Numbered from the stretch's first letter, positions 781-35,960 are shown. The stretch is DNA of 38,915 bases from Methanomicrobia archaeon LH_S14 (GCA_023659775.1 JAGXOS010000002.1:1-38915); one strand, 5' to 3'. A program made the numbers and translations. The notes: generated by a model from the letters alone, not told the origin.

Positions 781-3327
781 ATGAAGATATACAAATCTGA
801 AGTGGAAGGTGGATGCGGAGTCGTTGGTTTCGCATCCACGATTCCGGTCAAAGGTAGGCATATATTTGAACCCGCTATACAGATGCATAACCGAGGTAAC
901 GGAAAGGGCGGAGGTATAGCCGCAGTTGGTCTCTCTTATGAAGACCTCGGCGTTTCAAGATCAATACTTGAAGACGACTATCTGCCACTGATAGCACTAC
1001 TCGACCCGGAAGCTCGCAGCGAGATAGAAGAGGAGTTCATAACGCCTTTAATGGACGTTGATAAGTCGGAAAGGATACCAACCGTTTCAGATTATCGTAA
1101 GATAGAGGGGTTAGATGCGAAACCACCGGATGTATGGCGGTATTTTGTCAGGGTTAAAGAGGATGTGCTTGATAGGTACATAAGAGAAACTAAATTAGAG
1201 GATATAGACCGAAGAAGGGCAGAAGACGAATTCATTTATCAAAATAGCTTCAAAATCAATACGAAGTTCTACGCGTCGCTTGGCGAAAAGAGGGCGTTTG
1301 TGCTCTCTCACGGCAGGAATATGATGATATTGAAGATCGTTGGTTATGCCGAGGACATAGTAAGATATTATAAACTTGAGGATTTCAGAGCTCATGTCTG
1401 GATAGCGCATCAACGTTATCCCACAAAGGGTAGAGTCTGGCATCCGGGCGGAGCACATCCATTCATGGGAATGCATGAAGCGCTCGTTCACAATGGTGAT
1501 TTCGCTAACTATCATTCCGTGGTGGAATATCTTGAACAGCGAGGCAGACATCCTCTATTCTTGACCGATACAGAGGTTTCTGTTCTGTTGTTCGACCTGT
1601 TAAACCGGAAGTATAACTATCCGCTGGAGTATGTTATTGAGGCGATGGCGCCCACAACCGAACTTGACTTTGATATGCTACCGCCAGAAAGGCAGGAGAT
1701 ATACCACGCTATACAGACCATGCACATTCATGGGTCGCCAGACGGACCCTGGTTTTTTATAATTGCGAGAAACGAGCCTTACGAGAACTATTTCCAGTTG
1801 ATCGGGATAACTGACACATCTATGCTGAGACCGCAGGTATTTGCACTTGTAGAAGGGGATGACGTTCAGATAGGACTAATCGGTTCGGAAAAGCAAGCGA
1901 TAGATGCAACACTTAAGAGTTTATCAGAGGAGGATAAGAGGTTCCCTTCTGTCGCAGATAAATATTGGAATGCACGAGGCGGTAGTTATACCGATGGTGG
2001 TGCGTTCATATTCACAATAAGAGGAGATGCGAAGAAGAAGCTCGTATGCACCAATAAGTTCGATGAAGTTGTGAAAACACCTGAATATCAGACGCACTGC
2101 GATTTCACAAAGCCTATTACACCACTCCGAGATAGCAATAGACAAAGAGAAATGATAGAAGCTGAATTGAAAAGTCCGCTAAACTTATTCGAGTTCTTGC
2201 GAAGTGGTGTTAAGGAATGGGACTGCAATAAGCTACGATGGACGGTATTCGAGCTTACAAAGTATGCAAAGGAAGATGAGCGAAAGAAGACAATCGTGAC
2301 AGAGGGTTTAACACTTCTTAACGACCGCAGGTATGACTCAGGCAACAAAAAGAGGAGTTCCATAGTCCAGATAGTAAAAGAAGCACTACACAGGATATTT
2401 GATGAGACTCCGGCAATAGAGGCTAAAAGCGCTGGTATCTATCACTTGATTCGCTGGTCGAATAAGGACCGTTTAAGACCACCAGAGAGAGGAGAAGACG
2501 TTTTGATAGTAAATGCGGCGAAGCTTCCACCAGAAGGAGAAGAAAGTGATGCGAGGCTTGTCGTAACGGCTTATGAGCTGGACTGGAAAAGGTTCATTGT
2601 CTATAATGCACAGGGGCAGCGTTTTTGTGGCTCGGGATTAGGTCCTCATACAACAGGTGTGAGGATTGATGTTTATGATAGTTCCGGGGATTACCTCGGC
2701 TCGTCTATGGATGGTGCAGAACTTTACATTCACGGAAATGGGCAGGACCAGCTTGGGCAGATATTGAAGAATGGTAAGCTTGTGGTCTTCGGTGATGTCG
2801 GACAGACGTTCATGTATGGAGCAAAAGGAGGTGAATCATACGTGTCGGGAAATGCGGCTGGCAGACCGCTAATAAACGCAGTTGGAAAACCGCGTGTGGT
2901 GATAAATGGGACATGTCTTGATTACTTAGCGGAATCGTTTATGGCAGGTGACCCTCTAAATGGCGGTGGCTTTGTAGTGCTGAATGGGCTTGAACCCGAT
3001 GAGAACGGTAATTTTAGAGAACAGGATACGCCATATCCGGGTTCAAATCTGTTTTCACTCGCATCGGGCGGTGCAATCTATATAAGAGACCCGCATCGTA
3101 AGCTGGTGAACGACCAATTAAACGGTGGTGAATTCTCAATTCTAACGTCAGAAGATTGGGCGCTTATTTTACCTTACTTGGAAGAGAACGAGAGACTTTT
3201 TGATATATCCATCGAAAATGACCTTCTGGTAGTAAATGGCGAGAAGAAAACACCGCAGGAGGTGTACAGGAAGGTTAAGCCGTTGAAGACCGCTATCCTT
3301 GCAGCGGGTGAAGAGGTGGACGATTAA
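781..3327 (+). CDS. Glutamate synthase subunit: class II glutamine amidotransferase domain fused to GXGXG C-terminal domain (no FMN domain)
   Basis: Ntn-type GG|CGVVG start, HQRYPT, AHPF and HNGDFANY motifs; C-terminal GXGXG beta-helix (GQRFCGSG, GDVGQTFMYGAKGG, GGAIYIR). Confidence 0.88.
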   Translation: MKIYKSEVEGGCGVVGFASTIPVKGRHIFEPAIQMHNRGNGKGGGIAAVGLSYEDLGVSRSILEDDYLPLIALLDPEARSEIEEEFITPLMDVDKSERIPTVSDYRKIEGLDAKPPDVWRYFVRVKEDVLDRYIRETKLEDIDRRRAEDEFIYQNSFKINTKFYASLGEKRAFVLSHGRNMMILKIVGYAEDIVRYYKLEDFRAHVWIAHQRYPTKGRVWHPGGAHPFMGMHEALVHNGDFANYHSVVEYLEQRGRHPLFLTDTEVSVLLFDLLNRKYNYPLEYVIEAMAPTTELDFDMLPPERQEIYHAIQTMHIHGSPDGPWFFIIARNEPYENYFQLIGITDTSMLRPQVFALVEGDDVQIGLIGSEKQAIDATLKSLSEEDKRFPSVADKYWNARGGSYTDGGAFIFTIRGDAKKKLVCTNKFDEVVKTPEYQTHCDFTKPITPLRDSNRQREMIEAELKSPLNLFEFLRSGVKEWDCNKLRWTVFELTKYAKEDERKKTIVTEGLTLLNDRRYDSGNKKRSSIVQIVKEALHRIFDETPAIEAKSAGIYHLIRWSNKDRLRPPERGEDVLIVNAAKLPPEGEESDARLVVTAYELDWKRFIVYNAQGQRFCGSGLGPHTTGVRIDVYDSSGDYLGSSMDGAELYIHGNGQDQLGQILKNGKLVVFGDVGQTFMYGAKGGESYVSGNAAGRPLINAVGKPRVVINGTCLDYLAESFMAGDPLNGGGFVVLNGLEPDENGNFREQDTPYPGSNLFSLASGGAIYIRDPHRKLVNDQLNGGEFSILTSEDWALILPYLEENERLFDISIENDLLVVNGEKKTPQEVYRKVKPLKTAILAAGEEVDD

Positions 3328-6693: not shown

Positions 6694-6981
6694 ATGGGAA
6701 ATAATAAGGTAAAGATACTGGAGAAGAAGGAGAAAGAGGTGAGGATAGAGGTGGAAGGTGAAGACCATACACTTTTAGCTCCACTGGCATCAAAGCTATT
6801 GGAGAATGAAAAGGTTGACATCGCAACCTATGGCATCAAACATACGCTGATGAGCAACCCGGTTTTGTATGTGAAGGTGAGGGAGGGGGATCCATTAGAG
6901 GTGGTGAAGTCGGCTGCTGCTTCACTGGCATCAGAATTTGAGGAATTCGAGACCTTGTATAAAAAAGCGGCAATAGTCTAG
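6694..6981 (+). CDS. rpoL: DNA-directed RNA polymerase subunit L (Rpo11)
   Basis: EGEDHTL motif, size, and conserved position after csl4. Confidence 0.92.
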   Translation: MGNNKVKILEKKEKEVRIEVEGEDHTLLAPLASKLLENEKVDIATYGIKHTLMSNPVLYVKVREGDPLEVVKSAAASLASEFEEFETLYKKAAIV

Positions 6982-7037
6982 CGGTAGGACATGGGCTTCC
7001 CAAGCCTATAACCCGGGTTCAAGCCCCGGTTGCCGCA
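6967..7037 (+). tRNA. tRNA-Gly, anticodon CCC (CCA not encoded)
   Basis: Acceptor GCGGCAA/TTGCCGC plus discriminator A; D arm GTC-TAGCGGTAG-GAC; anticodon arm TGGGC-TTCCCAA-GCCTA; T arm CCGGG-TTCAAGC-CCCGG. Confidence 0.93.
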
Positions 7038-7071
7038 TAAAAGTTTTAAAAAAAAGTTTTATCAAAGAAAT

Positions 7072-8163
7072 ATGGACCAGATAAAAAAATACGAATTCAG
7101 GAAGGTATTGGAAGAACTGAGGAAAAAGAGCGGTAGAGGTACAGAACTCGTTTCAGTTTACATTCCCCGGGATAAACAAATATCTGATGTTACTTCTCAT
7201 CTCAAGGAAGAATACGGGCAAGCAATGAACATAAAAAGCAAATCCACTCGTACTAACGTTCAAAGCTCTTTAGATTCCATTTTATCCAAGCTGAAGTATG
7301 TGGATATAGGAGAAAATGGCGTGGTTATATTCTGTGGTGCGGTGGAGAAGGGTGGAGACAAGACGGATATAGAAACTTTCATCGTGGAGCCGCCGGAGAA
7401 AATACCTTCTTACATCTATCATTGTGATTCCTCTTTCTTCCTCGAGCCGCTGGAAGAGATGGTGGAGGAGAAGGAAAAATACGGGTTGCTCGTGCTTGAC
7501 AGAAGAGAAGCAACGATAGGCATTCTAACGGGAAAGGTGGTGGAGACGACGAAGCACTTGACTTCCGCGGTTCCGGGAAAGATAAGAAAAGGGGGGCAGT
7601 CGGCACTGCGATTTCAAAGGTTGCGAGAGATTGCAATAGAAGATTTTTATAAGCGAATAGGGGAGCATGTAACACGAATTTTGCTGCAAATAGGAGACCT
7701 CAAGGGCATCTTGATAGGAGGACCAGGTCCAACGAAGGATGATTTTATAAAAGGGTCTTACTTGCATTACGAGCTGCAGAATAAAATTCTTGGCGCTTTT
7801 GATGTAGCCTATACGGATGAATCAGGTCTTTTTGAGCTCGTTGACAAGGCAGAGGATGCCCTGGAAGGGCTGGATTTGATGCGCGAGAAGAGGTTCATGA
7901 CGAGGTTCATGAAGTTATTGGCAAATGATGAGAGTATGGTTGCATACGGAGATGAAGAAGTAAGGAGGAAATTGGAAATTGGCGCTGTTGGCACGCTTTT
8001 GTTTTCCGAGGAGCTCAGCACTGAGTTCATGCACAATTTAGTAGAACTCGCTGAGGAGATAGGAGCAGATGTGGAATTAATATCAACGGATTTTGAGGAA
8101 GGCGTGCAATTAAAGCGTGCATTTGGTGGCGTTGCCGCTTTATTGCGGTACAGGGCAAAGTAA
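7072..8163 (+). CDS. prf1: Peptide chain release factor aRF1 (363 aa)
   Basis: GTELVSVYIP, NIKS, YHCD and GGQS motifs. ATG 7072 chosen because the 7030 start lies inside the tRNA. Confidence 0.95.
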   Translation: MDQIKKYEFRKVLEELRKKSGRGTELVSVYIPRDKQISDVTSHLKEEYGQAMNIKSKSTRTNVQSSLDSILSKLKYVDIGENGVVIFCGAVEKGGDKTDIETFIVEPPEKIPSYIYHCDSSFFLEPLEEMVEEKEKYGLLVLDRREATIGILTGKVVETTKHLTSAVPGKIRKGGQSALRFQRLREIAIEDFYKRIGEHVTRILLQIGDLKGILIGGPGPTKDDFIKGSYLHYELQNKILGAFDVAYTDESGLFELVDKAEDALEGLDLMREKRFMTRFMKLLANDESMVAYGDEEVRRKLEIGAVGTLLFSEELSTEFMHNLVELAEEIGADVELISTDFEEGVQLKRAFGGVAALLRYRAK

Positions 8164-10576: not shown

Positions 10577-10664
10577 CTTTTCTCACTCACCCATTATCAC
10601 TCACCCATATGTTTCTATATATTATAAATATAATTATATAAAAACAAGAGCGAGGCATCATATT

Positions 10665-10672
10665 TTTATAAA
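10665..10672 (+). promoter_or_regulatory. Candidate TATA box for the ATPase-PafA/Dop-modifier operon
   Basis: TTTATAAA about 30 nt upstream of ATG 10703, in the AT-rich divergent phoU/ATPase intergenic region; AGGGGA precedes the start. Confidence 0.4.
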
Positions 10673-10702
10673 CCAATTCTTATATTTTAAAGGGGATTAA
10701 AA

Positions 10703-12331
10703 ATGGAAGAAAGGGAGGACTATATTCCAAGATACGAGTATGAACGGTTAGAGAGTGACTACAGGCGGTTGATGAGGAAATACGAGGAGACAGAAGCGTA
10801 TAAAGCGGATTTGGAGAAACTTGTTTCAAAATCGAGGTCGCCGCCTTTGGACTGTGGATTCGTAGTGGAGAAGACCGGAGAGGGTGCCATTGTGAATTTG
10901 AATGGTGCATTAAAGGCTTTACCTTACGGTACGCTTACAGAGAAAGAAATAGAGAAGCTGAAAGAGGGTCTATATGTCTTCATAGGACGCATCCCCGACA
11001 GGAATAACCCCAGTGGATTTACCATAGGCATCACGAAGGTGTACGACAGGATGGTAGATTTAGAGGTGGGCGAGATAGAAGAGTTGAGGAAGGACGACGA
11101 TGGATGGGTTGGAGAAATATCAACCGGGAAGGGGCGTGGTAGGATATATAAAAGGCTGAGAGAAGAAGAAAAGGAGATGGTAAAAGAGGGGATGAAGGTA
11201 GGGCTTCTTCCCGGTACCTTTGACATAAAGAAGAGTTACAAAGCGAAGGAAATCTCCCGCTACGAAGTCACAAAGAGTCCCGATGTGAGCTTTAACGACA
11301 TTGGTGGTTTAAAGGAGGTAAAACAGGAATTGATAAAGAGCATTATTCTTCCGATGATAAATCCCGATGATTACTCGAAGTATGGGGAATGCTCGAGGAG
11401 GATACTGATGTATGGTCTGCCAGGATGCGGGAAAACGATGTGTGCAAAGGCGTTAGCATCTGCATTACCAAATTGTGAATTCGTGAAGGTCGGAGCAGGA
11501 GAGCTATTCAGCATGTGGCTTGGCGAATCAGAGAAGAATGTAAGAATGGTGTTCGAGGCTGCGAACGCTAAATTAGAGGATGGTGAAAACGACTATGGTG
11601 TAATCTTCTTTGACGAGATAGATGCGTTAGCACAGGAAAGGGGCATGTACACTGGCTCCTCTGGAGCGCCTGAGAGAGTCACCGGGCAACTACTGGACCT
11701 GTTGGAAGGTTTCCACGCTCTGCATCCACACCTTACGGTGATAGGAGCAACGAACAGGCTGTATCTTATAGATTCCGCATTCAGGGCGAGATTTGATAAG
11801 ATAATTGAGGTTCCAAAGCCTGATAAGGAAGCCGTGTATTCCATTGTCTCCTTATATGCTAAAAAGATTCCTGTTGACCACTACTTGATAAAGGAAAAAG
11901 GAGGAGAAGAAGAAGCGCGGGCGGATCTGGTGAAAGAGATTGTCGGCTACATGTACAGTGATAGATATGTTGAGACAGAAATAGGAAGGATAAAGAGGGC
12001 GGATACGATAACCGGGAGGTTCATATCGCAGATATTCAATTATGCAAGGGATAAGGCATTGGAGGAGAGGACATTGCTGATGCTAAAAAAAGGAGTTATC
12101 AGCAACGAGGATATGAGGAGAATGTGGGATAAAGAAGGAATTGCAGAGATATTAGATGCAGGAAGCAGGACAGAGGATTTGCAGAAGACGTATAAACGCA
12201 TAGAAGATATAGGAGTGAACATGAGACATCTGAAAGAGGGTTTTGACAAGTTTGTGCAAAGAAGAGCAGAGGAGATATTAGCATCAGGGTATGGGGGAAT
12301 GCCAGAAGAAGAAACTGGAATGCATTATTAA
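10703..12331 (+). CDS. ARC/Mpa-like proteasome-associated AAA+ ATPase
   Basis: N-terminal coiled coil ending RSPPL, about 130 aa of OB-like region, Walker A GLPGCGKT, pore loop MWLGESE, Walker B FFDEID. The post-AAA segment YAKKIPVDHYLIKEKGGEEEARADLVKEIVGYMY resembles the Mpa/ARC-specific region rather than PAN. Context supports the call. Confidence 0.82.
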   Translation: MEEREDYIPRYEYERLESDYRRLMRKYEETEAYKADLEKLVSKSRSPPLDCGFVVEKTGEGAIVNLNGALKALPYGTLTEKEIEKLKEGLYVFIGRIPDRNNPSGFTIGITKVYDRMVDLEVGEIEELRKDDDGWVGEISTGKGRGRIYKRLREEEKEMVKEGMKVGLLPGTFDIKKSYKAKEISRYEVTKSPDVSFNDIGGLKEVKQELIKSIILPMINPDDYSKYGECSRRILMYGLPGCGKTMCAKALASALPNCEFVKVGAGELFSMWLGESEKNVRMVFEAANAKLEDGENDYGVIFFDEIDALAQERGMYTGSSGAPERVTGQLLDLLEGFHALHPHLTVIGATNRLYLIDSAFRARFDKIIEVPKPDKEAVYSIVSLYAKKIPVDHYLIKEKGGEEEARADLVKEIVGYMYSDRYVETEIGRIKRADTITGRFISQIFNYARDKALEERTLLMLKKGVISNEDMRRMWDKEGIAEILDAGSRTEDLQKTYKRIEDIGVNMRHLKEGFDKFVQRRAEEILASGYGGMPEEETGMHY

Positions 12332-12337
12332 AATAAA

Positions 12338-14098
12338 ATGGAAAGGGAGGATTTGAATAGATGGCAAGGGTTAGAGCACGAATTTAGAGTGGGCATAAGT
12401 TCAAAATCACCCGGCTTGTACAGATATGCGAGATTTTATCATGTAGATGAAGTGATTCATGCGCTTGAGAATTATACTTTTTTTGATGGCACGGATGCGA
12501 TATGCTCGAAGTTGCGGAGGAGAAACGACGGCTTTTTGAGAAATGGCTCTCGGATTTACATCTGCACTGGTGGTCACTTAGAGATAGCCACGCCTGAATG
12601 CAGAAACGCCTTCGAGGTGCTGAAATATGATAAGGCGGCGGAGTTGTACATGCAGATAGGGGTGGAGAAAGCAAATGAAAGATATCGGGAGAAGCTGAGA
12701 AAAAAAGGGAATACCCCCGCATACATCCAATGCTGGAAAGCAAACGTGGAGATAGACAAGAGGTATAGCAGGGGCACGCACGAATCCTACATGGTGGAGA
12801 GGAGGAAATTTGTGGGTAAAGAGAATTTGCTCATACCTTTTTTAGTGCTTCGGAAGATATTCTTTGGAGCTGGCGGCTTTATAGCGGAAAAAGAAGGGAT
12901 AAGATATGTGCTTTCGCCGAAAGCGATGGTTTCGAAGCGGGTTCTCACAGAGTCACCTTCTCAATGGCCGATATTATCTACACGTGACGAGCCGTTGAGC
13001 ACAAAGGATAAATATCGAGTGCATGTTACATCAGGAGAGGGAGTTCGCTCTGAGGTTACGCGGCTGCTCAATAATGCGCTCACATCCTACGTGATAGATG
13101 CGATAGAAACAGGGAAGATCTCGTATGTAGAGGACATCTGGAATCCGCTTCAAACATTTAAAGATATTTCCGCGAATACCGAAGGTGACTGGAGGATAAA
13201 GTTAACGAATGGGAGGACTGAGTCTGCGATTGATTATCTTATGGGTTATTATCTCGCGGTGATAGAGGAGTTATTTGAGGAACGAGAGACATCTTACTGG
13301 GACAGATACGTTCTGGATACGTTCAAGAAGCTTTGTGATAAGTTCGGACAGGGATTGCTTGAAGACCCATACGTGGTGCGGCGTTTGGAATGGGTGATGA
13401 AGTTATGGGTGATAAATAACGAAATAGATGATTTTGAATATGAATACACTTCAAAGGGGAAATTTGATTACCGGAGCATCTACATGATGGATGAGCGTGT
13501 GGAGAAAGAGATAGCCGCTTCGTTTGATTTCACTAATCTCTGTGACCATGATTTATACGAGCAAGTAGCGGATAGGATAGGGGTGGAGCGAGTACTAACG
13601 GAAGAGGAGATAGGAGAAGCATTGTTATTCCCACCGAAGGATTCAAGAGCCGAGTTAAGGGTAAGGCTTGCATCTGAATTCGAGAATGCGACACTGAGCT
13701 GGAATAAGATAACGATAAACCGGGAGCCGAAGATAGAGATAGATATGGGTAGACCAAGTGGAGAGGAATATTCGAGGTTATTTGAAAGGTATCCGGAACT
13801 TGCGAGGATGCCAAGCGCGGTGGTGGTGTTTTTGCGTGAAAGGAGGAGAGGTGAGGCGACGAGGCAAGTTCTTGTACGACTTCTGGCGGAGGAAGAGGAC
13901 ATAAGAGGCTGGGAGGAGGAGATAAGCAGAGAAATAAGGAACAGAATAGTCAGGAATCCCTATTTAGACTATTTGCTGTATTCCAATAACAAAACTTACC
14001 GATTTGATGAGCTGGATGGATGGGATAAGGAGAGTGTAAAGGAGAAGGTAGAAGAGATAAGGAGGGCGGAAAAGAAGGAGAAAGAAGAGGTAGAATAA
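12338..14098 (+). CDS. PafA/Dop-family (Pup ligase-like) protein, closer to PafA
   Basis: GLEHEF (GxExE), FLRNGSRIYICTGGHLEIATPEC (cf. PafA [20 protein letters not shown]), GTHESY, LIPFLVLRKIFFGAG, PILSTRDEP, YRVHV, LEWVMK, PPKDSRAELR. Confidence 0.85.
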   Translation: MEREDLNRWQGLEHEFRVGISSKSPGLYRYARFYHVDEVIHALENYTFFDGTDAICSKLRRRNDGFLRNGSRIYICTGGHLEIATPECRNAFEVLKYDKAAELYMQIGVEKANERYREKLRKKGNTPAYIQCWKANVEIDKRYSRGTHESYMVERRKFVGKENLLIPFLVLRKIFFGAGGFIAEKEGIRYVLSPKAMVSKRVLTESPSQWPILSTRDEPLSTKDKYRVHVTSGEGVRSEVTRLLNNALTSYVIDAIETGKISYVEDIWNPLQTFKDISANTEGDWRIKLTNGRTESAIDYLMGYYLAVIEELFEERETSYWDRYVLDTFKKLCDKFGQGLLEDPYVVRRLEWVMKLWVINNEIDDFEYEYTSKGKFDYRSIYMMDERVEKEIAASFDFTNLCDHDLYEQVADRIGVERVLTEEEIGEALLFPPKDSRAELRVRLASEFENATLSWNKITINREPKIEIDMGRPSGEEYSRLFERYPELARMPSAVVVFLRERRRGEATRQVLVRLLAEEEDIRGWEEEISREIRNRIVRNPYLDYLLYSNNKTYRFDELDGWDKESVKEKVEEIRRAEKKEKEEVE

Positions 14099-15684
14099 TG
14101 AAGGAGCACGCAAAGGGGACAGAGGGTAAGATAAGAGGAGTAGAGCAGGAATATCCGGCAAGTGCAAAAGCGACCTCAAATCCTTCTTTGCTCGTCAACG
14201 CCGCGATTCAAGGTTTAAAAAGAAGAAAAATTTCAAGGGATGTGAAGTGGGACATAACTACCGAAATATCACAGGAAGCGAATGAATCGCGAATAGCGTC
14301 TTCGTACGGAGATAACGGCTGCCGGATTTATAACGATATGGGGCATCTTGAAATAGCAACACCTTCTTACAATAACCCTTTTGATGCCGTGGCATACGAT
14401 AAAGTATCAGAGATATATGCTTTTGTGGGCTCAAGGGAGGCGAGCCTGGCTTTAAAGAAAAGAGTGGTTATTCATAAGAACAATGTCGCGAATTTCTTCA
14501 GTCGCATTAGTGCTGGTGCTGACAGTGGCATACACATAGGAAAAGGGAAAAAAGTAAAAACCAATACATACGCCACGCATGGGAATATAATAACAAAAAG
14601 AAAAGCATGCAAGGATTGGAGTCGTGTAGAAAAAGCGCTAATACCCTGGGTTGTTACACGAATATTGTTCACCGGGTCCGGGGATGTTGTTTCCGGAGAT
14701 ACCTTTGGTAAAGAAGGAGTAAAGTTCGTTATCTCGCCAAGAGCGATGTTCGTTGTGCAGAAGTCTTCTCTTTCCACTACTGTGGGTAGAGGCATCCTGA
14801 ACACAAGAGACCAGCCTCATGCCGCACGTCAATACTGGCGACTACACGATATACATTATGAGGCGCTTCGTTCCGAATACGCAATTTTCTTGCGTGATAT
14901 CGCGCAAGCAATGGTAATTTGTGCATTTGAATTGGGGTTCCTGGATGATGCACCGGAGATAGACGACCCGGTGAGGGCATTCAAGAAAATATCATTGGAT
15001 ACGCAGGAATGCGAGTGGGAGATAAAGTTGAAGAACGGTGAGAGGACAGATGCAGTATCCATTTTACGGTTTTATCTCGAAGCAATAGAGAAGATGTACG
15101 AAGAGATGGGAGGAGAAGGGAAGTGGGATAAAATAGGGAGAAAAGGTTTAAAGGAAGTGATAGAGAAGTTGGAAGCTCGGCACCTCGAAAAATATGTGGA
15201 TGGGATAGACTGGGTGACGAAATTGGCATTGCTTGTGAATTACGAGCCGAAAAGTGCTTCTGAAGGAATAAGCATATGTAATCAATATGCATTGCTGGAT
15301 GAAAGTGTGATGTATTATCTCGAGGATGGAGAAGAAAGTATAAAAGGCAGTTGTCTTTTCAATCCGAAGGAGTCGCTGGCATTCGCAAAGAAAGAATTGC
15401 CGCAAGTTGATTGGTCTTCGTTATCAGATAGAGTAAAATATGCACTGAGTAATGCACCGGAGCAGACGAGGGAATTTTTCAAGGCTGAGCTGTTGAGAAG
15501 ATATGGATCGCATGTGAGGAGTGTTAGCTGGTCAACGATGGTGCTTAATGAGGCGAAAATAATGCTGGACGAGCCGTTTATGCTAAATAAGGCAGAAATA
15601 GGGGCGGAAATGATAGAGGGAAGAGAAATAGAGGAAGTTTTATCAGCAGCGAAAAGGTTATATCCTGATAAGGTGATCTTTTAG
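14098..15684 (+). CDS. PafA/Dop-family protein, closer to Dop (deamidase/depupylase)
   Basis: GVEQEY, Dop-loop-like KWDITTE, NGCRIYNDMGHLEIATP (cf. Dop NGARLYVDHAHPEY), HKNN, TTVGRGILNTRDQPHA, RLH, IDWVTKL, APEQTREFFK. Coupled to the upstream gene by a TAATG overlap. Confidence 0.85.
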   Translation: MKEHAKGTEGKIRGVEQEYPASAKATSNPSLLVNAAIQGLKRRKISRDVKWDITTEISQEANESRIASSYGDNGCRIYNDMGHLEIATPSYNNPFDAVAYDKVSEIYAFVGSREASLALKKRVVIHKNNVANFFSRISAGADSGIHIGKGKKVKTNTYATHGNIITKRKACKDWSRVEKALIPWVVTRILFTGSGDVVSGDTFGKEGVKFVISPRAMFVVQKSSLSTTVGRGILNTRDQPHAARQYWRLHDIHYEALRSEYAIFLRDIAQAMVICAFELGFLDDAPEIDDPVRAFKKISLDTQECEWEIKLKNGERTDAVSILRFYLEAIEKMYEEMGGEGKWDKIGRKGLKEVIEKLEARHLEKYVDGIDWVTKLALLVNYEPKSASEGISICNQYALLDESVMYYLEDGEESIKGSCLFNPKESLAFAKKELPQVDWSSLSDRVKYALSNAPEQTREFFKAELLRRYGSHVRSVSWSTMVLNEAKIMLDEPFMLNKAEIGAEMIEGREIEEVLSAAKRLYPDKVIF

Positions 15685-15744
15685 TAAAGGTTCTTGCGAA
15701 GCAAAAAAGTGTTAGGGGGTTGAGTTAAAGTGGGTGTGAATGTA

Positions 15745-15987
15745 ATGGGTTTTGAAGGAATGGAAGGGGAAGAAGAGGAAATAGAAGAGGAAGAGGAGTA
15801 TGTAAAAGAGGAAGAGAAGGAATACAGCGGTGCAGAGAAGGAGAAAGAGATGGCGAGCATAATGGAAAGGTTGAAGCAGCGTGAGAAGAAGGAGAAAGCC
15901 GCCGACCTCGTAAGTAAGTTGAGAGGGAAGAAGAAGGTAAATAAGAAGATAATGCCTTATGAGATATATGCGACTTCGGGGGAGTGA
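15745..15987 (+). CDS. Candidate Pup/UBact-like small protein modifier (80 aa, ends ...IYATSGE)
   Basis: Low-complexity, highly charged protein with C-terminal Gly-Glu, directly downstream of two PafA/Dop homologues. ATG 15745 follows GGTGTGA; GTG 15730 is an alternative start. Confidence 0.78.
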   Translation: MGFEGMEGEEEEIEEEEEYVKEEEKEYSGAEKEKEMASIMERLKQREKKEKAADLVSKLRGKKKVNKKIMPYEIYATSGE

Positions 15988-21493: not shown

Positions 21494-23878
21494 ATGGAGG
21501 TGAAAAAGGAAAAAATGAAAATGAAGAAGGGAGAAGGGGAAGAGAGATTAAAAAAAAAAGCGGTAATAGGCATATTATTGGCAGTGATAATGATGAGTTC
21601 GGCATTTTCGATGATGACGCATTTGACGACGGGAAGCGATGTCACGCAACCAACAATTAGAAAGGGTTATATTGTAAATCCCGATAATGTTACGATTTCT
21701 ATGGATGGGAACACCACCTCTGTATTGATCGGTCAGAATGTGCAGTTTATGTGTAGTGGGAACAGGACTGGAGCGGTAACAATAACAGGAATAGCGGGGA
21801 CGCCAACCGAAGGATATCTGTTTTTCAGCAGCACTGGCTGGTTTGATACAGGTGTAATGACGGAAGAAGGGATGTATAATGCCACTTATGGAGAGCGTTG
21901 GGAATTACTTGGGGTTCAAACGCCTGTAATGGCTTTAAGTCTAAAAGTAGGCACTAAGGAAGTCTCAAGTATTTGCTGTGGCACCCCTTTGAGAGTAGAT
22001 TTCACAAGCAACCTGGATGAAAACGATTGTGTTGACCTGAAGATTGTCAATCCGGACGGGAGAATAAAGGTGTCCAATAATCAGAAATTTGACGATATAA
22101 ACGTGAGTCAGCTTCTTGAATATGGCTCTATGAATGAGTCGAAGCAGATAAATACGACAGGCTGGAAAATAGGTGATTATACTTTCCAGATAAAGACCAA
22201 ATCGGAGTATGCATGTGGATTAAGTGCGAGTAGCGCTGTAAAGGACCTAACAATAGTAAAAGGTGAAATTGACATTAGCGCAGAAAAGACTACTGTAACA
22301 GAGCTTGAGACAATAAAACTCACGGTGACTGGTGTATGTGGCGATATAATATGGGTCAACGCCACTCCTTCGAGCCCCCATGTGCTCTTCGTAGGTGGTG
22401 TAGAGGACACTCCAGCTGCCGCTGATGGACAGGATAATTTCGATCACAAGATTGACGCGGACGGAAAAAGGACTTACGCAGTCAAATTTAACGATACCGG
22501 GAGTTACACGATAAAGGTAACCGTTAAAGGTGGTCCGCGTGATGGTGACTATGACACTGTTGATATCGCCGTTACAGAGAAAGGAGTCACCTTTGACATA
22601 CCAACCACAGTGGTCATCGGTGAGAGACTCACGATAAAAGGAACGGCAAACACGGGTGACTGGGTACAAATCGCTGTGGATGACATTATATGCACAGAAT
22701 TAAAGAAGCTCGTGATTGCTGGAAACGGAGAATTTGAGAAGGAGATAGATACAGGTACTGCATGTAGCGGGGCATTTTCTGTTCCGGGTTCGGTGCGATT
22801 GAAGGCATTTATCGATACAACATGGCCTGCGGGGACAGATGTTAGTGGTTACACTGACGACGGATCCATGGCAATATTTGTGTCTGAAACACATTTAGAT
22901 GCAATCCTCTCAAAAGCTACACTTCCTCCTGGCGACAGTTTCGAGGTTTATGGTACTGCATCTTCGGATTATGTTGAAATCGTGGCAATATCACCAAAAG
23001 GAGGAAATGGGACTGGGATAGATGGTTTATATGGCGTCTCGATTTATACGGTTCCTGCTTTTATTGCCCCTGATGCCTTTTCAGACAGTGAGATTGCGAA
23101 AAAAATCAATGTTTCTGAATGTGCAGCACCTACCCCAACAATAGGAAGAGGAGGTGGAGGCGGAGTTCCACGTGACTCTGATGGCGACAACTTCTATAAG
23201 AAGATAAAAGTGGACAGGGGTGCGGACACAGGAAACTACACGATACTCCTGCTTTCTCCAGGAATGGATGGCATTTACGGTGATTCATATTATTCCTATA
23301 TTAACAGCATCCTGGATTTGGACGGAGCAGGTCCAGAGCTTGGTGCGATAGATGTATCAAACAGAACAAAAGAGGAAATTGTTGCGATAATAGAGGATAT
23401 AATTCATGTCGCGGGCAGTGATGGCTTCATGTGGATAGGAAATATTGTAGTAACTCAATTTGACGCATTTGACACAGGTGAAAGCGAAAATCCATACCCA
23501 TCCATCTTCGGCATGCACAACGGTACGATCATACCTTCCCAAGACATCAACGTAACCAAACTATACACCTACCCATGCCCCGGCACGGGCGGACATACCG
23601 AACACATAAAAATATGGAATAATTCTGACTGGAATGTAACAGCAACTTGGAACGGCTACACAGGAGATTGGCACAACATTTCCTTTAACGAGTCTTTCAC
23701 TTTGCATGCAGGTGTCGAATACAACTATACCATCCGAACGGGCTCGTATCCACAAATTATCCATAATCATACGCACACAACTTTAGACGGCTCTTATATC
23801 AATTGTACAGAGTTCACGGATGCAAATGGAAAGAGATATAATAATTGGATTCCTGCAATTAAGTTGCTTCGTCAGTGA
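21494..23878 (+). CDS. Secreted cell-surface / S-layer-like protein with mosaic domains
   Basis: Basic N-terminus plus hydrophobic signal (AVIGILLAVIMMSSAF), Thr/Gly/Asp-rich beta-type domains, many NxS/T sequons, C-terminal FDTG..NPYPSI...YTYPCPGTGGH module. Confidence 0.75.
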   Translation: MEVKKEKMKMKKGEGEERLKKKAVIGILLAVIMMSSAFSMMTHLTTGSDVTQPTIRKGYIVNPDNVTISMDGNTTSVLIGQNVQFMCSGNRTGAVTITGIAGTPTEGYLFFSSTGWFDTGVMTEEGMYNATYGERWELLGVQTPVMALSLKVGTKEVSSICCGTPLRVDFTSNLDENDCVDLKIVNPDGRIKVSNNQKFDDINVSQLLEYGSMNESKQINTTGWKIGDYTFQIKTKSEYACGLSASSAVKDLTIVKGEIDISAEKTTVTELETIKLTVTGVCGDIIWVNATPSSPHVLFVGGVEDTPAAADGQDNFDHKIDADGKRTYAVKFNDTGSYTIKVTVKGGPRDGDYDTVDIAVTEKGVTFDIPTTVVIGERLTIKGTANTGDWVQIAVDDIICTELKKLVIAGNGEFEKEIDTGTACSGAFSVPGSVRLKAFIDTTWPAGTDVSGYTDDGSMAIFVSETHLDAILSKATLPPGDSFEVYGTASSDYVEIVAISPKGGNGTGIDGLYGVSIYTVPAFIAPDAFSDSEIAKKINVSECAAPTPTIGRGGGGGVPRDSDGDNFYKKIKVDRGADTGNYTILLLSPGMDGIYGDSYYSYINSILDLDGAGPELGAIDVSNRTKEEIVAIIEDIIHVAGSDGFMWIGNIVVTQFDAFDTGESENPYPSIFGMHNGTIIPSQDINVTKLYTYPCPGTGGHTEHIKIWNNSDWNVTATWNGYTGDWHNISFNESFTLHAGVEYNYTIRTGSYPQIIHNHTHTTLDGSYINCTEFTDANGKRYNNWIPAIKLLRQ

Positions 23879-32015: not shown

Positions 32016-32939
32016 TTAAATATTGCACTCTTCCTCCAGGAAAGCCAAAATTTCCGTCACTTCCGCGGTTGCAACGCACACCACCGTATCGGCTCCTGCG
32101 TAGTAGAGATAGAGCATATCGTCCAAAACAACAGCACCGCAGGTAAATACAACGTTGGGCACAGCTCCTTGTAGCTCATACCTCTCTTTAGGCTCAAGAA
32201 GAGGCGTTCTTCCCCTCATTAATACCTTCTCCGGGTCTTTACGGTCCATCAAAGCCACGCCAAGCCGATAGTGCACATGCTCATCCACTCCGTGATAGAT
32301 TACGAGCCATCCCTCTTTGAGTTTTATAGGTGGTGCGCCGCCACCGACTTTAAGATATTCCCAGCCCTCTCTTGGGCTCATAACGATATTGCTATCTCGC
32401 CAATGAACAAGGTCAGCGGAGTATGCGACCCATATATGAGGAGGAAATCGATGGTACATCACCCACGTACCTCCTATCTTCTCGGGGAACAGACAGATGT
32501 GCTTGTTATCAACACCTGGAAATGGATACGTTCTCTTTCCCCAGTTCCACCGGTGAGCTAAGAAGTCATCCACCTTTATGGATGTCATTGCTATCTGGAT
32601 ACATCCCCACCCGGCTCTTGGAACATTTCCCACTGCCGTATAACTTAGATAAACTGTGTCCCCAACCCTTACCAATCTGGGGTCCTCGACCGTGCGCTCG
32701 AGATCATTCAACGGGTCAGGCATAAATATCGGTTCCTCTAACCGCTCATCTATCCGGAACCCATCCTCGGAAGACGCGTATCCAAACCTGGAAGTGCCTG
32801 TTTTCAATCCCTGCGTCCTGTACACGATGTGGAATTTTCCATCCTCGTACAGAACCGCCGAATTATGCACCATGTATGATTCCCATGCGTTCTCTCTCTT
32901 TGGCTTCAGTATCGGATTTCCCGCATATCTTTTTAACAT
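32016..32939 (-). CDS. GH130-like glycosidase / mannoside phosphorylase
   Basis: RYAGNPILKP, VEDPRL, DNKHICLFPEKI, KVGGGAPP, WLVIYHGV, PNVVFTCG, YYAGADT. ATG 32939 preferred. Confidence 0.9.
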   Translation of the reverse strand: MLKRYAGNPILKPKRENAWESYMVHNSAVLYEDGKFHIVYRTQGLKTGTSRFGYASSEDGFRIDERLEEPIFMPDPLNDLERTVEDPRLVRVGDTVYLSYTAVGNVPRAGWGCIQIAMTSIKVDDFLAHRWNWGKRTYPFPGVDNKHICLFPEKIGGTWVMYHRFPPHIWVAYSADLVHWRDSNIVMSPREGWEYLKVGGGAPPIKLKEGWLVIYHGVDEHVHYRLGVALMDRKDPEKVLMRGRTPLLEPKERYELQGAVPNVVFTCGAVVLDDMLYLYYAGADTVVCVATAEVTEILAFLEEECNI

Positions 32940-32966
32940 TTTATTCCTCCCTCTTTTTTTTTGCAC

Positions 32967-33846: not shown

Positions 33847-34890
33847 TTACAACCCCCTCGCCTTCAGTATCTCGGTAAAAACGTCTATGTATATGCCGGC
33901 TATTTTCTCCGCAGACCTCATACGCGTGTACACCTCTTCCGCTTCTATAACTCTCTTTGCTATCCCCTCACCTTCACAAAAGTCAATCAATTTCCGGCAC
34001 AGGTCCTCCGTATCACTATAATATATCACTTCATCCTTCAATGGCTGGAAGTACTCGGATTGCTGTGGAATACAGATCGGACAACCGGCACCCATCGCCT
34101 GGAAGATTACAGAGGAGAGGAGCCGGTGATACGTGTTCTGGTATTTATGGAAGATGACCGCATCCGAAGCAAATAAGTACTCGTCAAACCGCTCATCAGA
34201 TAGCGCACCCTCTTCACGAACAATCATCCAGGGCGGTGCCAACTCCTTCTCAAGCATCTCAAAGCCTGGCGAGACAACAAATAACAAGACCGATTTATAC
34301 TTCAGCCCTTCACACAGGTATCTGAGATAAGGCAGATATCCCCTCTGGCAGAAGGTGAAGATTATTTTCTTATCCAGAGGCAATCCTAACTTTTTTCTGC
34401 TCTCAATCTTGTCACCGCGTCTTACCGGGAAACAGGGAAAAGGAATGTATTTTGCGTCCGGATAAACATCCTTCAGGAACTCTTGTCGTTCATCGAAATA
34501 AATCACTTTATCCCAGAGAAACTGATAAAACCACGTTTCCTCCGGTAACTTATCTTCGTGAACGACATGAACAGGAAAAGCTCGCTCTTTTATCATGGGA
34601 AATATCCTGGCGAGATGCTCTACGGGAAGCGTCCGTAAGTCCTCAACCACAAAGATATCAAACTCTGTCGTGAGAATGGGTCTCGGGTCCAGGAAGTTTT
34701 TCCCGAAGCATCGTATCACGTGACGCTCATCTTTACCGGTAAATTTGTCTTCTCCGGACTCCTCCCGGAGAAAACTGAATACGGTTACTTTATGCCCCAA
34801 CTCCAGCCATGCATTCACCAGCGCTTTTGCATGTACCGCAGCACCTGTTTCGTCATTCCATGCGCTCATCACCGCAATCTTCATTTGCAC
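33847..34890 (-). CDS. GT-B fold glycosyltransferase-like protein (paralog 3)
   Basis: MKIAVMSAWNDETGAAVHA, LGLPLDKKI, ASDAVIF, QAMGAGCPI; GT4-like layout. Confidence 0.75.
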   Translation of the reverse strand: MQMKIAVMSAWNDETGAAVHAKALVNAWLELGHKVTVFSFLREESGEDKFTGKDERHVIRCFGKNFLDPRPILTTEFDIFVVEDLRTLPVEHLARIFPMIKERAFPVHVVHEDKLPEETWFYQFLWDKVIYFDERQEFLKDVYPDAKYIPFPCFPVRRGDKIESRKKLGLPLDKKIIFTFCQRGYLPYLRYLCEGLKYKSVLLFVVSPGFEMLEKELAPPWMIVREEGALSDERFDEYLFASDAVIFHKYQNTYHRLLSSVIFQAMGAGCPICIPQQSEYFQPLKDEVIYYSDTEDLCRKLIDFCEGEGIAKRVIEAEEVYTRMRSAEKIAGIYIDVFTEILKARGL

Positions 34891-34895
34891 ATCAC

Positions 34896-35960
34896 CTATT
34901 TAATTAATATTGAATTAAAAAGCGCTATATACTGTTTACCTGTTGCTTGAGCTGAATTCCTCTTTACATATTCTTCTGCCGCATTCATCGTGATTTTGTA
35001 TTCTTCCGACTCGTCAAAGATTGCACACAACTTCTTCTTCAATTCCTCCTCGCTGGAATACTTCATCACCTCCTTGTCGAGATATTCCACATAGTTTGAA
35101 TCCCGGGCAGCGATGGGGCAGCCAGAGCCAAGACACTGAAGAACCGTGCTTGAAACTACAACATTTGAAGCGGATTTCTTGTTGAATACAAGAGCATCTG
35201 AGGCATGCAGATAGTCGTACAGTCTTTTTATGTCCGGAGCTTCTTCTCTCAGTTCAATCTCCATAATTCCCTGCTTTTGTAGTTTTCTGAACTCCTGAAT
35301 CCCCGTTTTATCTTTGGTCGTTACCAGAAGAAGAATCGGATAGTCTTTCGTGAGTTCGGCTACGGAAGGGACAACTTCGATAGTACTGTTCGCCGCTGGT
35401 CCAAAGCCAAATACGATCTTCTTATCCTGGGGCAACCCCAATTTCTTCCTCGCTTCTACCTTATTCCCTTTTGCCGTAGGATAGCAGGGATAAGGTATAA
35501 TATGAATTTTATCCGGGTCATACGCATTCACGAGGAAGTTTTTGTAACGTTCATCGAAACATATGACTGCATCCCAGTCGAACTGATAGAAAGCAGGGTC
35601 TTCCGCGAGTTTTCCATCGTGAATTACATTCACTGTCTTCGCCTTCTTCTTTATTCGGTGGAAAATCTTGCCAAGGAGGTCCTTTGGGAGCATCCCTAAA
35701 TCTTGAACGACGAATATATCATAATCCGTAGTTAAAAATGGCACTGGATTGAGCTTATCAGGTGTATAACCCGATACGGTAAAACACCTTATGACATACT
35801 CCTCGTCTACACCGATAATTTGCGTCCCGTGAAAGGCATAGTCGTAAAAGGTGAATACCGTTAGGTCGTGACCCTCCTCTACCCATGCCCTACCTATCAG
35901 CTCTGCAAGGAAAGAAGCCCCGGAATCCGTGTTCCACCCACCCATCATTCCTATTTTCAT
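34896..35960 (-). CDS. GT-B fold glycosyltransferase-like protein (paralog 2)
   Basis: MKIGMMGGWNTDSGASF, HIIPYPC, LGLPQDKKI, LHASDALVF, QCLGSGCPI. Confidence 0.75.
   Translation of the reverse strand: MKIGMMGGWNTDSGASFLAELIGRAWVEEGHDLTVFTFYDYAFHGTQIIGVDEEYVIRCFTVSGYTPDKLNPVPFLTTDYDIFVVQDLGMLPKDLLGKIFHRIKKKAKTVNVIHDGKLAEDPAFYQFDWDAVICFDERYKNFLVNAYDPDKIHIIPYPCYPTAKGNKVEARKKLGLPQDKKIVFGFGPAANSTIEVVPSVAELTKDYPILLLVTTKDKTGIQEFRKLQKQGIMEIELREEAPDIKRLYDYLHASDALVFNKKSASNVVVSSTVLQCLGSGCPIAARDSNYVEYLDKEVMKYSSEEELKKKLCAIFDESEEYKITMNAAEEYVKRNSAQATGKQYIALFNSILIK

Follow-up and report, generated by a model that had tools for sequence, protein, structure and literature searches.

Protein tagging in archaea has so far been known only through ubiquitin-fold modifiers, the SAMP/Urm1/ubiquitin-like proteins, which have a beta-grasp fold and a Gly-Gly end and are adenylated by E1 enzymes. 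Outside Actinobacteria, Lehmann et al. reportedly described, in 2017, UBact loci of Gram-negative bacteria, in which a Pup-like small protein ending in Glu or Gln lies beside homologs of the Pup enzymes PafA and Dop. Archaeal SAMP/Urm1/ubiquitin-like modifiers are mentioned in PMC11354881, and reviews on Pup (prokaryotic ubiquitin-like protein) treat pupylation as bacterial and mainly actinobacterial (PMC6466877, PMC12288473, PMC7947786). Pup itself is described as a protein of 50-90 amino acids (aa) with a Glu/Gln alternation at its C-terminal end, and the same study reports bacterial pairs of Pup-ligase paralogs in planctomycetes and Plesiocystis that come with a small G-[EQ] protein, have a membrane protein linked to them and show no proteasome linkage (Iyer et al. 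2008, PMC2588565). Here we analyse a four-gene operon at positions 10703-15987 of a 38,915-nucleotide (nt) stretch of DNA from Methanomicrobia archaeon LH_S14 (GCA_023659775.1, JAGXOS010000002.1:1-38915), which in its full length is called the window. We consider it probable, at roughly 65%, that the window holds an archaeal Pup-type isopeptide tagging system, whose chemistry, enzyme roles, targets and ATPase role we infer. A tagging pathway is supported because the family and fold of the enzymes, their conservation throughout the order, the selection acting on the candidate tag and a controlled model of the enzyme-tag complex all point to it.

The operon comprises exactly four open reading frames (ORFs), all co-oriented on the + strand, behind a short intergenic region:

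10577-10702, + strand: AT-rich intergenic region between a divergent PhoU-like gene and the ATPase gene, read from the sequence
10703-12331, + strand: gene for an AAA+ ATPase of 542 aa (PF00004, E 3.8e-33)
12338-14098, + strand: PL1, gene for an enzyme of the Pup_ligase family and candidate tag ligase, 586 aa (PF03136, E 2.3e-59)
14098-15684, + strand: PL2, gene for a Dop-leaning enzyme of the Pup_ligase family and candidate deconjugase/deamidase, 528 aa (PF03136, E 1.7e-63)
15730-15987, + strand: candidate modifier (tag) gene, 85 aa from a GTG at 15730 or 80 aa from an ATG at 15745

The stop codon of the ATPase gene is followed by a 6-nt gap to PL1, PL1 and PL2 share a TAATG stop/start overlap, and the tag gene starts 45 nt after PL2 if the GTG is used and 60 nt after it if the ATG is used. 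An earlier sequence-only reading had described four co-oriented, tightly packed genes in the order ATPase, PafA-like, Dop-like and modifier, which is unlike the actinobacterial order; the ORF listing and all junctions agree with this description. A TATA-like TTTATAAA lies about 30 nt upstream of the ATPase ATG and a GGGGA 8 nt upstream of it, and the intergenic region is predicted to be a probable archaeal promoter and ribosome-binding region.

Both enzymes belong to the Pup-ligase family, as had been proposed, and score 202 bits (PL1) and 215.6 bits (PL2) against PF03136 with a cut-off of 25. An AlphaFold2 (AF2) model of PL1, with a predicted local distance difference test (pLDDT) of 81.2 and a predicted template modelling score (pTM) of 0.82, has Dop and PafA as its ten best folds in the Protein Data Bank (PDB), both about equally (E 8e-28 to 6e-19, template modelling score on the target 0.71-0.87). 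The YbdK/GCS2 fold follows at E 1e-5, and glutamate-cysteine ligase is also among the nearest other folds. In a search of 1.84 billion representatives, PL2 returned 2096 matches at E<=1e-3, only 28 of which were at E<=1e-30.

The further reading of the two enzymes as a PafA and a Dop by descent is not supported. Against the PafA equivalog TIGR03686 (cut-off 551.3 bits), PL1 and PL2 score 161.4 and 136.8 bits, and against the Dop equivalog TIGR03688 (cut-off 492.3 bits) they score 158.8 and 185.3 bits, far below either threshold. PL2 leans towards Dop both in NCBIfam scores (185 vs 137 bits for PafA) and in PDB scores (128 vs 56 bits for PafA), and PL1 is nearly neutral (NCBIfam 161 bits for PafA vs 159 for Dop; PDB 76 for PafA and 97 for Dop). 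In phylogenetic trees, the PL2-type clade (clade A) and the PL1-type clade (clade B) each have a support of 100, and the two clades join against all bacterial-type proteins with Shimodaira-Hasegawa-like approximate likelihood ratio test (SH-aLRT) values of 93 (LG+C20, 54 rows) and 95 (LG+G4, 34 rows). The bacterial-type representatives number 103, with an NCBIfam class given for 20, and the bacterial-type tree set includes five proteins over the Dop cut-off and one near-PafA protein. The best PafA score among the 150 best PL2 representatives is 526 against a cut-off of 551, with no true actinobacterial PafA among them; because true actinobacterial PafA lies outside the tree set, orthology of PL1 with PafA is judged from the hidden Markov model (HMM) scores only. 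Forcing the PL2 clade together with the five true Dop proteins costs 121 log-likelihood units and is rejected by the approximately unbiased (AU) test (p-AU 2e-5; LG+G4, 34 of the 54 rows), a test made post hoc on a group named after the tree had been seen, with long branches involved and with unrooted trees. A phylogeny with PafA, Dop and UBact-locus enzymes had been suggested as a check; run with the five proteins over the Dop cut-off and the one near-PafA protein, it groups the archaeal pair apart. On our reading of these trees, the archaeal PL1/PL2 pair appears to be an old duplication of its own, and the terms 'PafA-like' and 'Dop-like' would therefore be functional analogies at best.

PL1 also carries a C-terminal extension of about 110 aa (residues ~476-586, positions 13760-14095) that is absent from the 451-476 aa PL1 of Thermoproteota. 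The extension, which ends in a highly charged tail and conserves a D-G-W near residue 560, is mostly of low confidence in the model and has no Pfam match.

The tag ORF is a real gene under strong purifying selection, and the lack of conservation that the sequence-only reading had named as a possible refutation was not observed. Its C-terminal half (15850-15984) is basic and conserved and in the window closes with the invariant E-I-Y-A-T-S-G-E, the terminal Gly-Glu being encoded at 15979-15984; its N-terminal half is acidic and variable, with 18 Glu in the first 35 residues of the window copy. The ORF has conserved counterparts at 41 related loci. The ratio of nonsynonymous to synonymous differences per site (pN/pS) is 0.115 for the 45 C-terminal codons (41 sequences, 40 of them distinct at the nucleotide level), and the final 14 codons show a pS of 0.69 and a pN of 0.010. 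In 40/40 sequences, stops interrupt both alternative frames of this strand. All four codons are used for the Gly of the terminal dipeptide, and the last codon is GAA in 26 sequences, GAG in 14 and CAG (Gln) in 1. The tag of locus L038 naturally ends in Gln. The tag family as a whole comprises 77 protein clusters that end in A-T-S-G-E (66), A-T-A-G-E (8) or A-T-S-G-Q (3), that is, in G-E 74 times and in G-Q three times. The only name given to these clusters is 'hypothetical protein', apart from one 'ribosomal protein L4', and no Pfam domain was found among the 77. With 80-85 aa and a G-[EQ] end, the tag fits the pattern of Pup, namely 50-90 aa and a C-terminal G-[EQ], and to this extent the claim of a modifier of the Pup/UBact type stands.

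The arrangement recurs across the methanotrophic archaea of the ANME-1 (anaerobic methanotrophic archaea group 1) type. PL2, used to scan species-representative genomes, gave 57 loci, comprising 54 ANME-1-type loci at 65-94% identity, mostly labelled Methanophagales, ANME-1, Methanospirareceae or Methanoxibalbensis, and 3 loci of Bathyarchaeia at 36-38%. The order ATPase-PL1-PL2 is present in 42 of the 43 ANME-1-type loci with enough upstream sequence; at the exception, L011, neither PL1 nor the ATPase gene lies upstream of PL2. In 39 of the 45 loci with enough downstream sequence, PL2 is followed by a tag ORF at a distance of no more than 500 nt. In these locus counts, L025 and L026 are one contig returned twice; it was returned from each end with the match at identical locus coordinates, which suggests a palindromic (fold-back) assembly artefact. 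The four-gene arrangement is not due to chance, and the synteny survey across archaeal genomes that had been proposed bore out the operon. Where the tag gene is absent beside PL2 (six loci), it is encoded elsewhere with the same C-terminus in 5/5 such genomes checked (E 1e-26 to 2e-31; L032 was left out of this check), and in the two sister-family genomes it likewise lies elsewhere than beside PL2. The displaced gene (L011; L016, L032, L041, L042, L050; L064-L066) adjoins, in three lineages, a gene whose N-terminus resembles ribose-phosphate pyrophosphokinase.

In a sample of 401 genomes from the phylum of the window, PF03136 matched 53/54 members of the same family and both genomes (2/2) of the sister family, and it matched none of the 10 genomes from other families of the class (0/10) and none of the 334 remaining genomes (0/334). 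Overall, Pup_ligase genes are present in 55/56 other genomes of the order and in 0/344 other genomes of the phylum. A third Pup_ligase-family match of 130-167 bits lies on another contig in a few genomes of the order (G409:C56:4260-5336, also G207:C56; G187:C14; G043:C15). Three loci labelled Nitrosotalea (L021), Desulfobacteria (L029) and Bathyarchaeia (L053) hold an ANME-1-type operon at 74-83% identity; they are probably mis-binned contigs and not evidence for bacterial hosts. Desulfobacteria are plausible partners in the same samples. Named members of the two archaeal enzyme clades come from Alkanophagales, Bathyarchaeia and Methanomethylicia/Verstraetearchaeota; the all-archaeal make-up of clades A and B is based on these named members, most representatives carrying no name. 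Because NCBI labels the clade members 'proteasome accessory factor PafA2 family protein' or 'hypothetical protein', the homologs are visible to automatic annotation.

A shorter cassette was found in Thermoproteota. Among 401 genomes sampled around a Bathyarchaeia genome, 14 contain PF03136 matches, 13 of the 14 with two matches that are mostly adjacent on one contig. An ORF of 31-38 aa abuts or overlaps the PL2 stop codon in all 13 loci (13/13) with a 3' flank and ends in A-P-P-G-E (11), A-P-S-G-E (1) or A-P-P-G-Q (1); at L057, it begins at a GTG overlapping the TGA of PL2, behind GGAGGTGG. By eye, the short and the ANME-1 tags share a basic stretch followed by E-hydrophobic-hydrophobic-A-x-x-G-[EQ], and the short tag corresponds, in length and position, to that part of the ANME-1 tag which was modelled on PL1 (residues 48-80). 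To our knowledge, such tags of 31-38 aa would be the shortest protein modifiers of this kind. No AAA gene was found within ~8 kb of the pair in the four long loci (4/4), and the neighbors at the Bathyarchaeia locus L060 are unrelated enzymes. The exchange of Asp for Cys in PL1 described below, the ATPase and the long (~80 aa) tag share one distribution, namely ANME-1 and the sister family (L095, L096); the Thermoproteota cassettes have Asp (or His) in PL1, no ATPase nearby and the tag of 31-38 aa.

The complex of PL1 with the tag was modelled from alignments of 22 rows for PL1 and 24 rows for the tag. The interface score ipSAE was 0.86, 0.86 and 0.85 in three runs and 0.00 in each of three controls; the mark applied is reached by 58/80 solved complexes and by 2/110 mismatched pairs, counts that hold only roughly here, own alignments having been used. 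Contacts agree by at least 69% between the runs, and the pLDDT of the partner is at least 63. The interface comprises tag residues 48-53, 55-57 and 59-80 and PL1 residues including 15, 17, 76-80 and 138-146. In the model, the conserved C-terminal 33 residues of the tag sit on PL1 and end at the catalytic loop that contains Cys76. Structure prediction of an enzyme-modifier complex had been put forward as a check, and with PL1 as the enzyme the pair passes it.

Active sites were surveyed in an alignment of 231 sequences that includes the 103 bacterial-type proteins. Both paralogs keep most of the residues that are at least 85% conserved in the latter, among them the N-terminal G-x-E-x-E, N-G-x-R-x-Y, the H-x-E of the catalytic loop and several Arg and His. 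The catalytic-loop Asp of this family is the proposed base that activates the lysine or water and is possibly a nucleophile in Dop, according to PMC3511204. In PL2, this residue (Asp80, codon 14335-14337) is kept in 49/49 ANME-1 sequences, 18/18 other clade-A representatives and 13/13 Thermoproteota. PL1 retains every near-invariant Glu and His of the family, is 75-94% identical across ANME-1 and shows changes of an Arg to Lys (K195) and of an Asn to Ser. In Thermoproteota PL1, the catalytic-Asp position is occupied by Asp in 12/13 sequences and by His in 1/13. Throughout clade B, only Asp, Cys or His occur there, each of which can act as a base or nucleophile. Because PL1 tolerates Asp, Cys or His at this position and PL2 never varies, ligation would fall to PL1 and Dop-like hydrolysis and deamidation to PL2; some deamidase activity is implied by the rare tags that end in Gln.

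Several observations weigh against a Pup-type system. PL1 Cys76 (codon 12563-12565) aligns without gaps with the catalytic-loop Asp of PafA (4b0t), and Cys is found at this position in 49/49 ANME-1 PL1, in 2/2 sister-family genomes and in the representative P0103. PL1 also has a Trp (W210), a clade-wide trait, in place of an Arg kept in 101/103 bacterial-type proteins, and PL2, which keeps its Arg residues, has lost two Glu (S90 and G162) at positions where 99 and 97 of the 103 have Glu. Neither paralog therefore has the full canonical active site. As for the modifier, family membership is the part of the earlier claim that did not stand: the tag had no match to the Pup HMM (PF05639) at E<=1 and lies outside the Pup family, a six-frame Pup scan of the whole genome gave only E 0.4 on another contig (a control genome, presumably Corynebacterium glutamicum, scored over the cut-off), and neither the genome nor the tag, the latter scanned with NCBIfam, gave a UBact (NF033388) match at E<=1. 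Finally, because PafA-Pup and Dop-Pup complexes have already been solved, the docking result may partly reflect likeness to them, that is, the memory of the model. On the side of the ATPase, the lack of proteasome genes in the operon, the penultimate His of the tail, the canonical PAN of related genomes, the low confidence of the N-domain model and the ATPase-free cassettes of Thermoproteota, all taken up below, also count against it.

The proposed Pup-type system would work as follows. The tag of 80-85 aa, probably disordered, would place its conserved C-terminal third in the enzyme groove with the Gly-Glu at the active site. PL1, PafA-like by analogy, would use ATP to activate the terminal Glu at its side-chain carboxylate and would link this group to amino groups of lysines on target proteins. 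PL2 would take the tag off again and would also deamidate the few forms that end in Gln. The ATPase, present in ANME-1 and Alkanophagales only, would recognise the extra acidic, helical N-terminal half of the tag, unfold tagged proteins and possibly hand them to the 20S proteasome. At the level of sequence and model, family, fold, conservation, selection and the complex model agree with the claim of an archaeal tagging pathway of the glutamine-synthetase fold that has its own AAA+ ATPase and a G-E modifier.

The ATPase appears to begin with a long helix (residues ~10-42), which a Pro-Pro-Leu junction joins to a beta-rich region reaching to ~170; it then has a single AAA module and about 130 extra residues at the C-terminal end. 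Its AAA module is classical, with VAT and Cdc48 as the nearest solved relatives over residues 174-393 only, and Walker A (G238-T245), the pore loop (W272-L273-G274), Walker B (D304-E305) and R361/R363 are invariant in 15 orthologs. An aromatic-hydrophobic-Gly pore loop is described as the translocating motif of Mpa (PMC8755798). The label 'ARC-like' fits only in a loose sense: the score against Mpa/ARC (TIGR03689) is 154.9 bits with a cut-off of 504.75, and the penultimate Tyr of the GQYL tail is absent. Scores against PAN (168.6 bits for TIGR01242 and 154.8 bits for NF003069, cut-off 500) and CdvC (155.5 bits, cut-off 650) are similar to the Mpa/ARC score or higher, and also far below threshold. 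The N-domain (residues 1-185) had no PDB match at E<=10 and no Pfam match above the gathering cut-off (DUF3945, 16.5 vs 21.9 bits). It has 85 relatives, of which the named ones are from ANME-1, Methanospirareceae, Alkanophagales, broader archaea and one Desulfobacteria-labelled metagenome-assembled genome (MAG). As a separate point, PADLOC was used to ask for a known anti-phage defence system; PL1, PL2 and the tag had no match, and the ATPase showed only generic AAA similarity to IetA/TRIP13, which rejects this candidate.

Whether Pup-type tagging in these archaea leads to protein degradation is a separate matter, for which we put the odds somewhat below even. A link between the ATPase and the proteasome is possible by analogy, and the MAG that contains the window encodes a proteasome subunit. 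The leading alternative, which we hold to be unlikely, keeps the same tagging chemistry without a degradation signal: the tag would regulate, protect or localise its targets, and the ATPase would be a segregase, a remodeller or a tag recycler that works without the 20S proteasome. The tail of the ATPase speaks for it. It reads E-E-[ED]-T-G-M-H-[F/Y/L] in 43/43 orthologs (F 35, Y 7, L 1), that is, it has a penultimate His where Mpa and PAN-type ATPases have Tyr and departs from the GQYL and HbYX patterns, and the penultimate Tyr of the GQYL tail is described as the main determinant of 20S binding (PMC8755798). No proteasome gene is among the genes of the operon, and Pup-ligase loci without proteasome linkage are known from the planctomycetes and the deltaproteobacterium mentioned in PMC2588565. 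Because the Thermoproteota cassettes (14/401 genomes) have no nearby AAA gene in the long loci, degradation is not inherent to the system. Canonical PAN is present above the cut-off in 24/24 other genomes of the order searched (in the 66%-complete MAG of the window, none was found above it), which rules out the operon ATPase as a replacement of PAN and makes it an addition. The AF2 model of the ATPase, made from 15 close orthologs, has a mean pLDDT of 61.6, with the helix 10-42 and strands to ~168 at pLDDT <50.

Against this alternative, the ATPase retains a pore loop of the translocating kind, and its tail follows the strictly conserved pattern G-x-aromatic/His-hydrophobic. The helix/beta junction of the ATPase is also like that of ANME-1 PAN, the likeness of the N-domains being confined to the helix/P-P-L junction (hhalign probability 62%, E 7e-5, 24 columns only). 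The long acidic N-terminal half of the tag occurs only where the ATPase is present. Because the ATPase co-occurs with the long tag and the Cys-type PL1, this shared distribution is the best hint that the ATPase reads the N-terminal half of the tag, as Mpa reads Pup (PMC8755798).

A bolder version of the degradation reading, which we regard as rather improbable, is that PL1 Cys76 takes over the acyl-phosphate-activated tag as a thioester, in a combination of glutamine-synthetase-fold activation with E1/E2-like transfer, that the ATPase delivers tagged proteins to the archaeal 20S proteasome, and that the system arose independently of the actinobacterial PafA/Dop split. The thioester is suggested because the Cys is strictly conserved in the PL1 of ANME-1 and Alkanophagales and is modelled against the C-terminus of the tag.

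The protein lysine as acceptor belongs to the conditional part of the Pup-type reading, and a different acceptor would turn the locus into a carrier-protein system, in which PL1 joins the terminal Glu to a small-molecule amine and PL2 releases the product, as in the LysW-type amino-group carrier proteins. We consider this very unlikely. The nearest other folds of PL1 are small-molecule carboxylate-amine ligases (YbdK/GCS2 and glutamate-cysteine ligase, see above) and the Thermoproteota tags are very short, which would suit a carrier, but no metabolic enzymes for a carried intermediate are conserved next to the cassette, either in ANME-1 or at the Bathyarchaeia locus L060, the ANME-1 operon contains an unfoldase-type ATPase, and the NCBIfam scan of the tag at E<=1 gave no carrier-protein family. 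The least likely proposal, that ANME-1 PL1 is a catalytically dead tag-binding adaptor and PL2 alone ligates and removes the tag, would account for Cys76, W210, K195 and the Asn-to-Ser change in PL1 and for the coupled translation of both genes that the TAATG overlap suggests, but it is opposed by the Asp that most Thermoproteota PL1 keep, by the complete set of near-invariant Glu and His in PL1 when PL2 has lost two Glu, by the restriction of the clade B position to residues capable of catalysis and by the high identity of PL1 across ANME-1.

The contig that carries the operon (C166) belongs to a 1.63-Mb MAG of 243 contigs that is 66% complete and 1.1% contaminated. The flanking genes are archaeal housekeeping genes, encoding aRF1 (508 bits, cut-off 234.7), SRP54, a YchF-related GTPase, a PhoU-like protein, HisRS, endonuclease V and a homocysteine-biosynthesis/CBS protein, and the GC content is 0.42-0.46 over 10-16 kb, without a break at the edges of the operon. 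The surroundings are thus as the sequence-only reading had described them, and the bacterial/archaeal chimera that it had named as a way to be wrong is not borne out: archaeal flanks, even GC content and the presence of Pup_ligase genes in the same and the sister family rule out both a chimeric contig and bacterial contamination. The contig is archaeal and derives from ANME-1/Methanophagales.

Elsewhere on the contig, a tRNA-Gly(CCC) at 6967-7037 overlaps the listed TTG start of the aRF1 ORF (7030-8163) by 8 nt; because of this overlap and because the profile match begins at residue 19, the true start of aRF1 probably lies further downstream. Three ORFs at 21494-23878 (794 aa), 33847-34890 (347 aa) and 34896-35960 (354 aa) have no Pfam match at E<=1e-5, and the 794-aa ORF has no NCBIfam match either. 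Positions 781-3327 encode a protein of 848 aa that combines a glutamine-amidotransferase-like region with a GXGXG domain (glutamate synthase/formylmethanofuran dehydrogenase C-like). The contig also contains genes for a mannosyl-3-phosphoglycerate synthase of a compatible-solute pathway (37080-38303) and for a GH130 mannoside phosphorylase (32016-32966).

In the literature searched, which did not extend to the supplementary alignments in PMC2588565 and PMC7947786 that might list archaeal homologs, we found no paper connecting ANME-1 or any other archaea with pupylation, PafA or UBact. The sequence-only reading had mentioned a UBact-like locus once noted in an uncultured ANME-1 genome, and no such report was found in this literature; the archaeal system is present in databases under automatic names and is undescribed in the searchable literature. 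If true, a Pup-type system that is present in almost all sampled genomes of the ANME-1 order, with scattered occurrences in Bathyarchaeia and Methanomethylicia, would be a second kind of archaeal protein tagging and would open a way to study proteostasis in the uncultured archaea that account for much of the methane consumption in the seabed. If the thioester and 20S reading were true, it would be a second archaeal degradation-tag pathway that is not based on the ubiquitin fold. The separate grouping of the archaeal and the bacterial pair reopens the question of the origin of the PafA/Dop family, and the Asp-to-Cys switch in PL1 is a natural experiment on the mechanism of this family. Because the parts are small and soluble-looking, the central claim of tagging is directly testable in Escherichia coli, a host whose proteins PafA and Pup-Glu are reported to pupylate (PMC7947786).

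Compared with known systems, the operon is most like the actinobacterial Pup-proteasome system, with which it shares two paralogous enzymes of the Pup_ligase family and fold, a tag in the range of 50-90 aa that ends in G-E or G-Q, and a C-terminal tag region that the model puts into the enzyme groove, in keeping with the position of Pup on PafA and Dop (PMC8755798). Both also co-encode an AAA+ ATPase with an aromatic-hydrophobic-Gly pore loop, and the low-confidence model of the archaeal ATPase begins with a helix followed by beta strands; in Mpa/ARC, an N-terminal coiled coil is followed by a double OB domain (PMC8755798). It differs in its archaeal host, in enzymes that belong to neither the PafA nor the Dop equivalog and group with each other away from both, in a tag that is not of the Pup family, in the Cys at the catalytic-Asp position of ANME-1 PL1, in the order ATPase-PL1-PL2-tag without proteasome genes and in an ATPase tail of T-G-M-H-[F/Y] instead of GQYL. 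With the UBact loci as reportedly described, it shares a small protein with a Glu/Gln end beside PafA/Dop homologs; the hosts here are archaeal and NF033388 gave no match at E<=1, a comparison made by the tag HMM. The pairs of planctomycetes and Plesiocystis resemble the Thermoproteota cassette in their divergent Pup_ligase paralogs, their small G-[EQ] protein and the lack of adjacent proteasome genes, but they are bacterial, whereas the named members of clades A and B are archaeal and each clade is split from the bacterial-type proteins with a support of 100. Like SAMP/Urm1, the proposed system would join a small protein through its C-terminus to lysines of archaeal target proteins, but it would do so with ligases of the glutamine-synthetase fold and through the side chain of a terminal Glu.

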